From Escherichia coli (GTDB lineage Bacteria > Pseudomonadota > Gammaproteobacteria > Enterobacterales > Enterobacteriaceae), in the NCBI RefSeq assembly GCF_003334255.1, contig NZ_QOWU01000095.1: 7,641 bases of DNA; one strand, 5' to 3'. The position numbers were made by a program, and so were the translations under genes. Positions 4,007-4,073 of the stretch are shown here, in pieces. Every line of letters begins with the position of its first letter. Position 1 is the first letter of the stretch. The notes under the pieces were generated by a model. That model worked only from the letters and a program-made list of their open reading frames with translations, was not told the origin of the DNA and did no database searches.

Positions 4007-4073
4007 CCAACCTCATCTATTTGATTAACTGTATGCCATCGTGGTGATGGCTTAACAGCTGCCTGCTTAAAAT

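Follow-up and report, generated by a model that had tools for sequence, protein, structure and literature searches.

A conserved palindrome between the repressor gene and the PL-like promoter of a Qin/DicF-type Escherichia coli prophage as a possible protective 3' stem-loop of the repressor mRNA

The window, that is, the whole stretch of 7,641 nucleotides analyzed here, comes from a lambdoid E. coli prophage of the Qin/DicF type and represents its immunity and early-left region (Table 1). Homologues of its cI-like repressor carry PF00717 and PF01381, and related records annotate the protein as cI or as LexA family. A P22-Cro-like gene, a YdaT/cII-like gene and an O-like replication gene are divergent from the repressor. 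As in lambda, the repressor gene is transcribed in the same direction as the PL-like operon, and the palindrome considered here sits within the 84-nt gap between them. An earlier note on this DNA had placed the repressor upstream of the palindrome and a PL-like promoter downstream of it, and the ORF list, the promoter scan and a pattern search showed this context to be right; an operator, too, precedes PL. The Rfam matches in the window comprised DicF, an STnc100-like match after it (5237-5377), which is below threshold (38.8 bits, gathering score 47), and a chance match to a lncRNA (2843-2894) only.

Table 1. Features discussed in the text, with their positions in the window
Feature	Position	Strand	Basis and remarks
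OR-region operator	3351-3368		Perfect match to TGTTTT-N6-AAAACA; overlaps repressor ATG
cI-like repressor, 212 aa, HTH and S24/LexA-type domain	3368-4006	+	ORF list; stop TAA at 4004-4006
Predicted hairpin inside cI	3634-3664	+	Repeat search; loop and upper stem 3643-3651 (GCAGGCAGC) complementary to 4058-4066
Conserved 39-nt block, ACTGTA-Y-GCCATC-N5-GATGGC-K-TAACAGCTGCCTGC	4028-4066	+	Alignment
Predicted extended hairpin	4029-4058	+	MFE and centroid folds; outer helix CUGU (4029-4032)/ACAG (4055-4058)
Predicted inner stem-loop	4035-4051	+	GCCATC/GTGGT/GATGGC; 6 bp, 7th pair 4041-4045 possible
C-rich, G-poor stretch, candidate rut region for read-through repressor transcripts	4060-4177	+	Composition
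OL operator TGTTTTGATAAAAAAACA	4073-4090	.	Perfect match to TGTTTT-N6-AAAACA
PL-like promoter, TTGACC-17-TAAACT	4091-4119	+	Promoter scan; drives ydfA-ydfB-ydfC-dicF-dicB
DicF sRNA, full length	5174-5225		Rfam, 76.7 bits (gathering threshold 48)

Several further observations were made on the surrounding region. As judged by eye, the repressor ATG (3368) has no Shine-Dalgarno sequence, lies inside the operator at 3351-3368 and is found 7 nt past a -10-like TAAAAT (3356-3361), a setting that suggests a leaderless repressor mRNA made from a PRM-like promoter, as in lambda. Also by eye, the OR region seems to harbor three operator-like sites with a regular 23-bp spacing (3305, 3328 and 3351), the middle one being poor, and OL harbors one clear operator only. 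The PL leader (4133-4215) is found, at 86-95% identity, in at least four other immunity types (Tritos, Evi, 689R5, 666R9, 683R6) as well as in one Actinobacillus phage record. A tract rich in C and poor in G stands at its start (4120-4146), and a long imperfect hairpin is predicted. No covariation was seen in this leader and it gave no Rfam match; it could be an antitermination or attenuation RNA.

Positions 4035-4051 read GCCATCGTGGTGATGGC, that is, GCCATC-GTGGT-GATGGC, with perfect 6-bp arms and a 5-nt loop, exactly as the earlier note had described it. The palindrome begins 28 nt past the repressor stop, and the -35 of the PL-like promoter begins 39 nt past the palindrome, in good agreement with the distances of about 30 and 40 nt that had been given; the OL operator is 21 nt away from its end. 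Four of the six stem pairs are G-C. The tail after the stem is TTAACAGC, in which 2 of the first 8 nt are T, and the terminator scan did not call the palindrome. It had been proposed that this is not a classical intrinsic terminator, and the missing U-run and the silent terminator scan bear this out.

In RNA folding, the inner hairpin had a predicted dG of -8.1 kcal/mol, and its stem formed with a pair probability of 0.8-1.0 in all six transcript contexts, the full-length mRNA included. The extended hairpin was predicted at -11.5, and one pair of its outer helix is broken by G4058A in L079/L080. Compared to shuffles, the local fold of the + strand RNA had a z of -0.9 to -1.1, and the minus strand folded slightly better (z -2.4). 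The whole window contains 21 perfect 6-bp hairpins with loops of 3-8 nt, against 12.9 ± 4.5 in dinucleotide shuffles, and 7 against 3.1 ± 2.1 when at least four G/C per arm are counted. As a bare pattern, a 6-bp palindrome is therefore within chance. What goes beyond chance is the way in which the sequence is conserved, and this pattern argues for function.

The same immunity region was found in 1042 of 5426 complete E. coli genomes, and 1031 of these carriers had at least 95% identity across the region. Further carriers were three phage records, 68 IMG/VR contigs and 20 metagenome contigs, and two scans of species-representative genomes did not find the region. The search behind our alignment used the 3' end of cI as its anchor, not the palindrome, and yielded 90 sequences (51 haplotypes); among the IMG/VR viral contigs, 68 had the cI 3' end and 67 the conserved block. 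All occurrences of the block were in one and the same genomic context. Repressor homologues were found at 84% identity or more only, plus one deletion variant. Three near-identical phage records had repressors of at least 97% identity, all other phage repressors were below 60%, and the distant ones that we sampled reached at most 46%, mostly 24-31%. Because homologues between 84% and the distant (<60%) phage repressors are missing, the comparison is limited to three clades. A search for more distant relatives, aimed at covariation, returned no variation in the arms.

Across the 90 sequences, none of the 12 arm positions varied, while four of the five loop positions did (4041, 4043, 4044 and 4045), giving six loop variants. 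Position 4044 is the sole one from 3700 onwards that shows all four bases in the 51-haplotype alignment; the loop may represent a mutational hot spot or may simply be where a constrained block is free to change. The loop variants GTGAT, GTGCT and GTGGC arise in otherwise near-identical backgrounds. The divergent clades differ from the window at 109-124 of 612 cI positions (about 18-20%). Their arms and flanks were unchanged (0/32) and three of their five loop bases were changed, so that the whole block differs at 4 of 39 positions, namely, 4034 and these three loop bases. In the neighboring stretches, the corresponding values were 10-11 of 21 (4007-4027) and 16-19 of 69 (4067-4135). Since the loop diverged while the arms and flanks did not, a recent recombination patch is unlikely, and the block is under constraint. 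Additionally, the 14 nt on the 3' side of the hairpin (4053-4066) are as invariant as the stem.

We then considered a number of known identities for this element. It has the stem-loop of an intrinsic terminator (four G-C pairs, 5-nt loop) and lacks the U-run, and because of this we do not regard it as one. A pattern search with up to 3 mismatches found no resemblance to the repressor operator TGTTTT-N6-AAAACA at 4035-4051; it returned 3305, 3351 and 4073 together with four 3-mismatch matches elsewhere in the window, which is the chance rate. In lambdoid phages such as lambda and P22, the nut site of the immunity region contains boxB, a short stem with a loop of 5 nt. The boxB loop is the recognized part, whereas the loop of the palindrome varies freely. 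Unlike boxB, the palindrome is also outside the PL transcript, and no boxA or N-like gene was seen. It is thus not a nut boxB, since it lies upstream of the PL -35 and its loop exists in six variants. Nor is it a LexA (SOS) box (CTGT-N8-ACAG), because the CTGT at 4029-4032 and the ACAG at 4055-4058 are 22 nt apart instead of 8. Rfam 15 gave no match at 4000-4130 even at E<=1.

Other candidates were rejected as well. A repeated regulatory motif would be expected in several copies, and the related 40-kb phage had no second good copy, the one-mismatch match being in a tail gene. The single context of all occurrences does not fit a mobile or independent element. Pairing of the flank with the PL leader (CUUAAC/GUUAAG and CUGCCUG/CAGGCAG) was considered and rejected because the leader is common to other immunity types and because A4174C breaks the helix in clades whose flank is unchanged. 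On the minus strand, there is no T-run for a terminator, and the promoter-like match reached, by eye, 7/12 only. A mini-ORF, ATGCCATCGTGGTGA, was discarded, its ATG being lost in a divergent clade, and sites for CRP and IHF were ruled out by spacing, variability or position.

The place of the palindrome on the map is informative. In lambda, the immunity transcription from PRM/PLIT ends at the intrinsic terminator T_IMM, upstream of PL (bioRxiv 10.1101/2021.04.19.439022). The palindrome shares this place, where the repressor transcription unit ends and OL/PL follow. However, T_IMM is intrinsic and follows rexB, whereas the palindrome has neither a U-run nor any sequence similarity to T_IMM and directly follows the repressor gene, in a region that lacks rex. 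Phage vB_EcoS-689R5, which has a sister immunity module with the same PL leader, carries a canonical terminator (9-bp stem and T8) 22 nt past its repressor stop and 26 nt before the PL -35. The spacing is alike in the two modules, with 22-28 nt from the stop to the hairpin and 26-39 nt from the hairpin to the PL -35, but the sequences are unrelated, and in the window a 6-bp stem with the tail TTAACAGC stands in place of the 9-bp stem and T8. The DicA-like Tritos module has a strong hairpin at the same place (dG -19.2, z -4.9), and a Rac-like module a weaker one. Because the sister modules and lambda have terminators or hairpins there, this site is probably where the repressor transcripts end.

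On this basis, the explanation that we favor, and to which we give about even chances, is that the palindrome is a protective 3' stem-loop of the repressor mRNA, with RNA polymerase being released farther downstream by Rho and/or by repressor bound to OL. The palindrome would be transcribed as part of the cI-like repressor mRNA, and the folded stem-loop, made of an inner stem of 6-7 bp and the 4-bp outer helix, would form the 3' end of the mature message, at about 4051-4058. The hairpin alone probably does not release the polymerase because it lacks a U-run. Instead, Rho might act on the untranslated, C-rich and G-poor RNA that starts directly past the hairpin, or repressor sitting on the OL operator, 21 nt downstream, might act as a roadblock. 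In either case, 3'-5' exonucleases would trim the RNA back to the hairpin, and the repressor message would be protected. As a net effect, transcription of the repressor gene in a lysogen would not run on into the PL operon and its genes for the division inhibitors DicF and DicB.

Term-seq data from E. coli have shown that the transcripts terminated by Rho have sharply defined ends at stable, U-less stem-loops, behind which C is enriched over G, and that such stem-loops shield the RNA from PNPase and RNase II (PMC6061677). According to the same work, a U-run is among the features that define an intrinsic terminator. For roadblocks, it has been documented in vivo that a repressor on its operator can halt the polymerase and that the stalled enzyme is removed (PMC4132739). 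By the measure of PMC6061677, the element in the window has both a stable U-less stem-loop and a rut-like excess of C over G downstream, with a C/G ratio of 2.0-2.4 in 78-nt windows starting at 4060-4100. It is this likeness to the published cases that makes the downstream stretch a candidate rut region. Like the stem-loops described there, the palindrome has a stop codon nearby and no U-run; unlike them, it is followed by an operator and a promoter, its flanks are as conserved as its stem, and the comparison is here based on sequence.

Some features count against a protective stem-loop. The hairpin is modest (predicted dG -8 to -11.5), with a z of about -1 on the + strand. The invariant stretch 4053-4066 is not required by a simple protective hairpin. 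Moreover, the C-rich stretch is also part of OL/PL and of the PL leader and is conserved for reasons of their own. The stem-loop itself is undescribed; on this best reading it is an ordinary element of a class that is already known.

The invariant 3' flank has a second property. Its core, GCTGCCTGC (4058-4066), is a perfect complement of GCAGGCAGC at 3643-3651 inside cI, where a hairpin of 11 bp with a 9-nt loop is predicted (dG -15.6, z -2.25) that is possibly a partner of the conserved block. The duplex between flank and cI was predicted at -21.5 kcal/mol, compared to -13.1 ± 2.2 for shuffled flanks, none of 300 being as good. Around the cI hairpin, 3630-3676 is free of substitutions, at synonymous sites too, with respect to one divergent clade and 3622-3654 with respect to the other, whereas elsewhere in cI the same clades show a difference every 3-9 nt. 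We treat this pairing as a lead and not as a result, because covariation is not possible between two invariant partners and because a third copy of the 9-mer exists in an unrelated gene. Scans of the whole 3' UTR for duplexes with the coding sequence gave a z of -2 to -3 in this module and about 0 in four others; we do not rely on them because the method allows huge internal loops.

The cI hairpin region shows two other peculiarities. The GGAG at 3657-3660, in the 3' arm of the hairpin, is a strong Shine-Dalgarno sequence 7 nt before an in-frame ATG at 3668 (codon 101). RefSeq takes this ATG as the first codon of a 112-aa 'LexA family protein' in EDL933 and in many further genomes, even though the 212-aa ORF is intact in them; the annotation may be an artefact of the leaderless full-length start, or it may reflect a real internal start. 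A metagenomic repressor variant, P0008 (178 aa; L010, 1501-2037), has an in-frame deletion of 102 nt that corresponds to 3564-3665 of the window. The deletion takes out the linker together with the internal hairpin and the complement of the flank, and the palindrome block is intact.

Four other explanations have to be weighed against a protective stem-loop. The palindrome could have no function of its own and be a chance occurrence within an immunity module that is young and has diverged little. In the window, palindromes as small as this one are indeed common (21 found, about 13 expected), nearly all carrier E. coli genomes are at least 95% identical across the region, and there are three clades only. 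We nevertheless find this explanation hard to credit, since it does not account for arms and flanks without a single change next to diverged intergenic stretches, for the changes in the loop itself, or for the repeated, independent loop changes in near-identical backgrounds that left the arms untouched. A binding site for a dimeric phage or host regulator, which would contact GCCATC and GATGGC in the DNA upstream of OL/PL and leave the 5-bp spacer uncontacted, is unlikely in our view, though the likeliest of the four. Its half-sites would be 11 bp apart, center to center. Invariant arms around a variable spacer are the pattern expected of a dyad site, the equally invariant flanks ACTGTA and TAACAGCTGCCTGC would suit a larger site, and a position about 40-60 bp upstream of the PL -35 is a frequent location for regulators. 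Indeed, because the arms never vary and no compensatory change exists, two 6-bp half-sites one helical turn apart would give an identical pattern of variation, and the invariant arms are the main weakness of an RNA reading. On the other hand, there is no match to the repressor operator and no LexA box, the full 40-kb phage lacks a second copy with 0 mismatches (those with 1-2 mismatches are in tail or host genes), and no candidate binding protein was identified. Additionally, the changes adjoining the stem behave as pairs in + strand RNA. Positions 4041 and 4045 can form a G.U, A-U or G-C pair in every variant, and in the EDL933 clade, T4052G gives rise to a U.G pair through which the inner and outer helices would merge into a single one of 12 pairs with one bulge; the predicted dG falls from -11.5 to -14.8, with a local z of -2.6. 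Read on the minus strand, both the 4041/4045 and the T4052G changes would give A.C mismatches. The version of the hairpin in a divergent clade had a z of -3.5. Taken together, these changes favor an RNA acting from the + strand, a support that is weak but consistent. The earlier note had offered a weak terminator, an RNA end-stabilizer or a protein-binding site; the evidence leans to the two RNA options and in particular to the end-stabilizer, in line with a kept stem and a free loop, and the protein site is still viable given the invariant arms.

Among the RNA options, a weak but self-sufficient intrinsic terminator, in which the hairpin alone would release a useful fraction of the polymerases despite its poor tail UUAACAGC, appears rather improbable. 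It would be in the same position as the canonical terminator of the 689R5 type and as lambda T_IMM, its stem is rich in G+C (4/6 pairs), and the EDL933 variant is predicted to extend the helix to 12 pairs with one bulge. However, a U-run belongs to the definition of an intrinsic terminator (PMC6061677), and here 2 T in the 8 nt after the stem and low hairpin energies (-8.1 inner, -11.5 extended) are in agreement with the silence of the terminator scan. The remaining explanation, to which we give little weight, makes the palindrome the apical hairpin in a larger, long-range fold of the repressor mRNA. The flanks would form helices with the coding sequence (4058-4066/3643-3651 and perhaps 4029-4034/3695-3700), and the fold would control the stability or the translation of the message. 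Such a fold would make use of the 9-10 bp of perfect complementarity described above, whose duplex energy was beyond that of all 300 shuffled flanks and whose partners both lie in substitution-free blocks. The consensus fold of 3600-4072 does contain long-range helices, and T4034C keeps the pair with G3695. Nevertheless, the full-length consensus fold prefers two local hairpins, the 3697-4032 pair is broken in one clade, and the invariance of both partners leaves no covariation. Moreover, the observation was made post hoc, and a third exact GCAGGCAGC occurs inside an unrelated gene (7234-7242).

A further reading, which is speculative and which we consider a long shot, would treat the whole 39-nt block as a two-part control element of the repressor transcript, composed of a repressor-dependent terminator and of the flank GCUGCCUGC, which would pair with the loop of the cI hairpin. 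Because the hairpin ends 21 nt before OL, the RNA in a polymerase halted at the operator would extend about 8-10 nt beyond the stem. If this were true, a protein roadblock would replace the missing U-run pause and the DicF/DicB operon would be shielded only in lysogens, and the formation of the 3' end would be linked to the stability or to the internal translation of the repressor message.

Roughly a fifth of the complete E. coli genomes carry this immunity module, among them O157:H7 and uropathogenic strains. The module lies directly upstream of the DicF/DicB operon. The way in which repressor transcription in the lysogen is excluded from this operon matters for the stability of the prophage and the fitness of its host. 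If the palindrome only caps the 3' end of the repressor mRNA, it would add one more routine case to a known class. Were termination to need bound repressor or long-range pairing with cI, it would show that two co-directional phage transcription units can be insulated from each other in a new and compact way.
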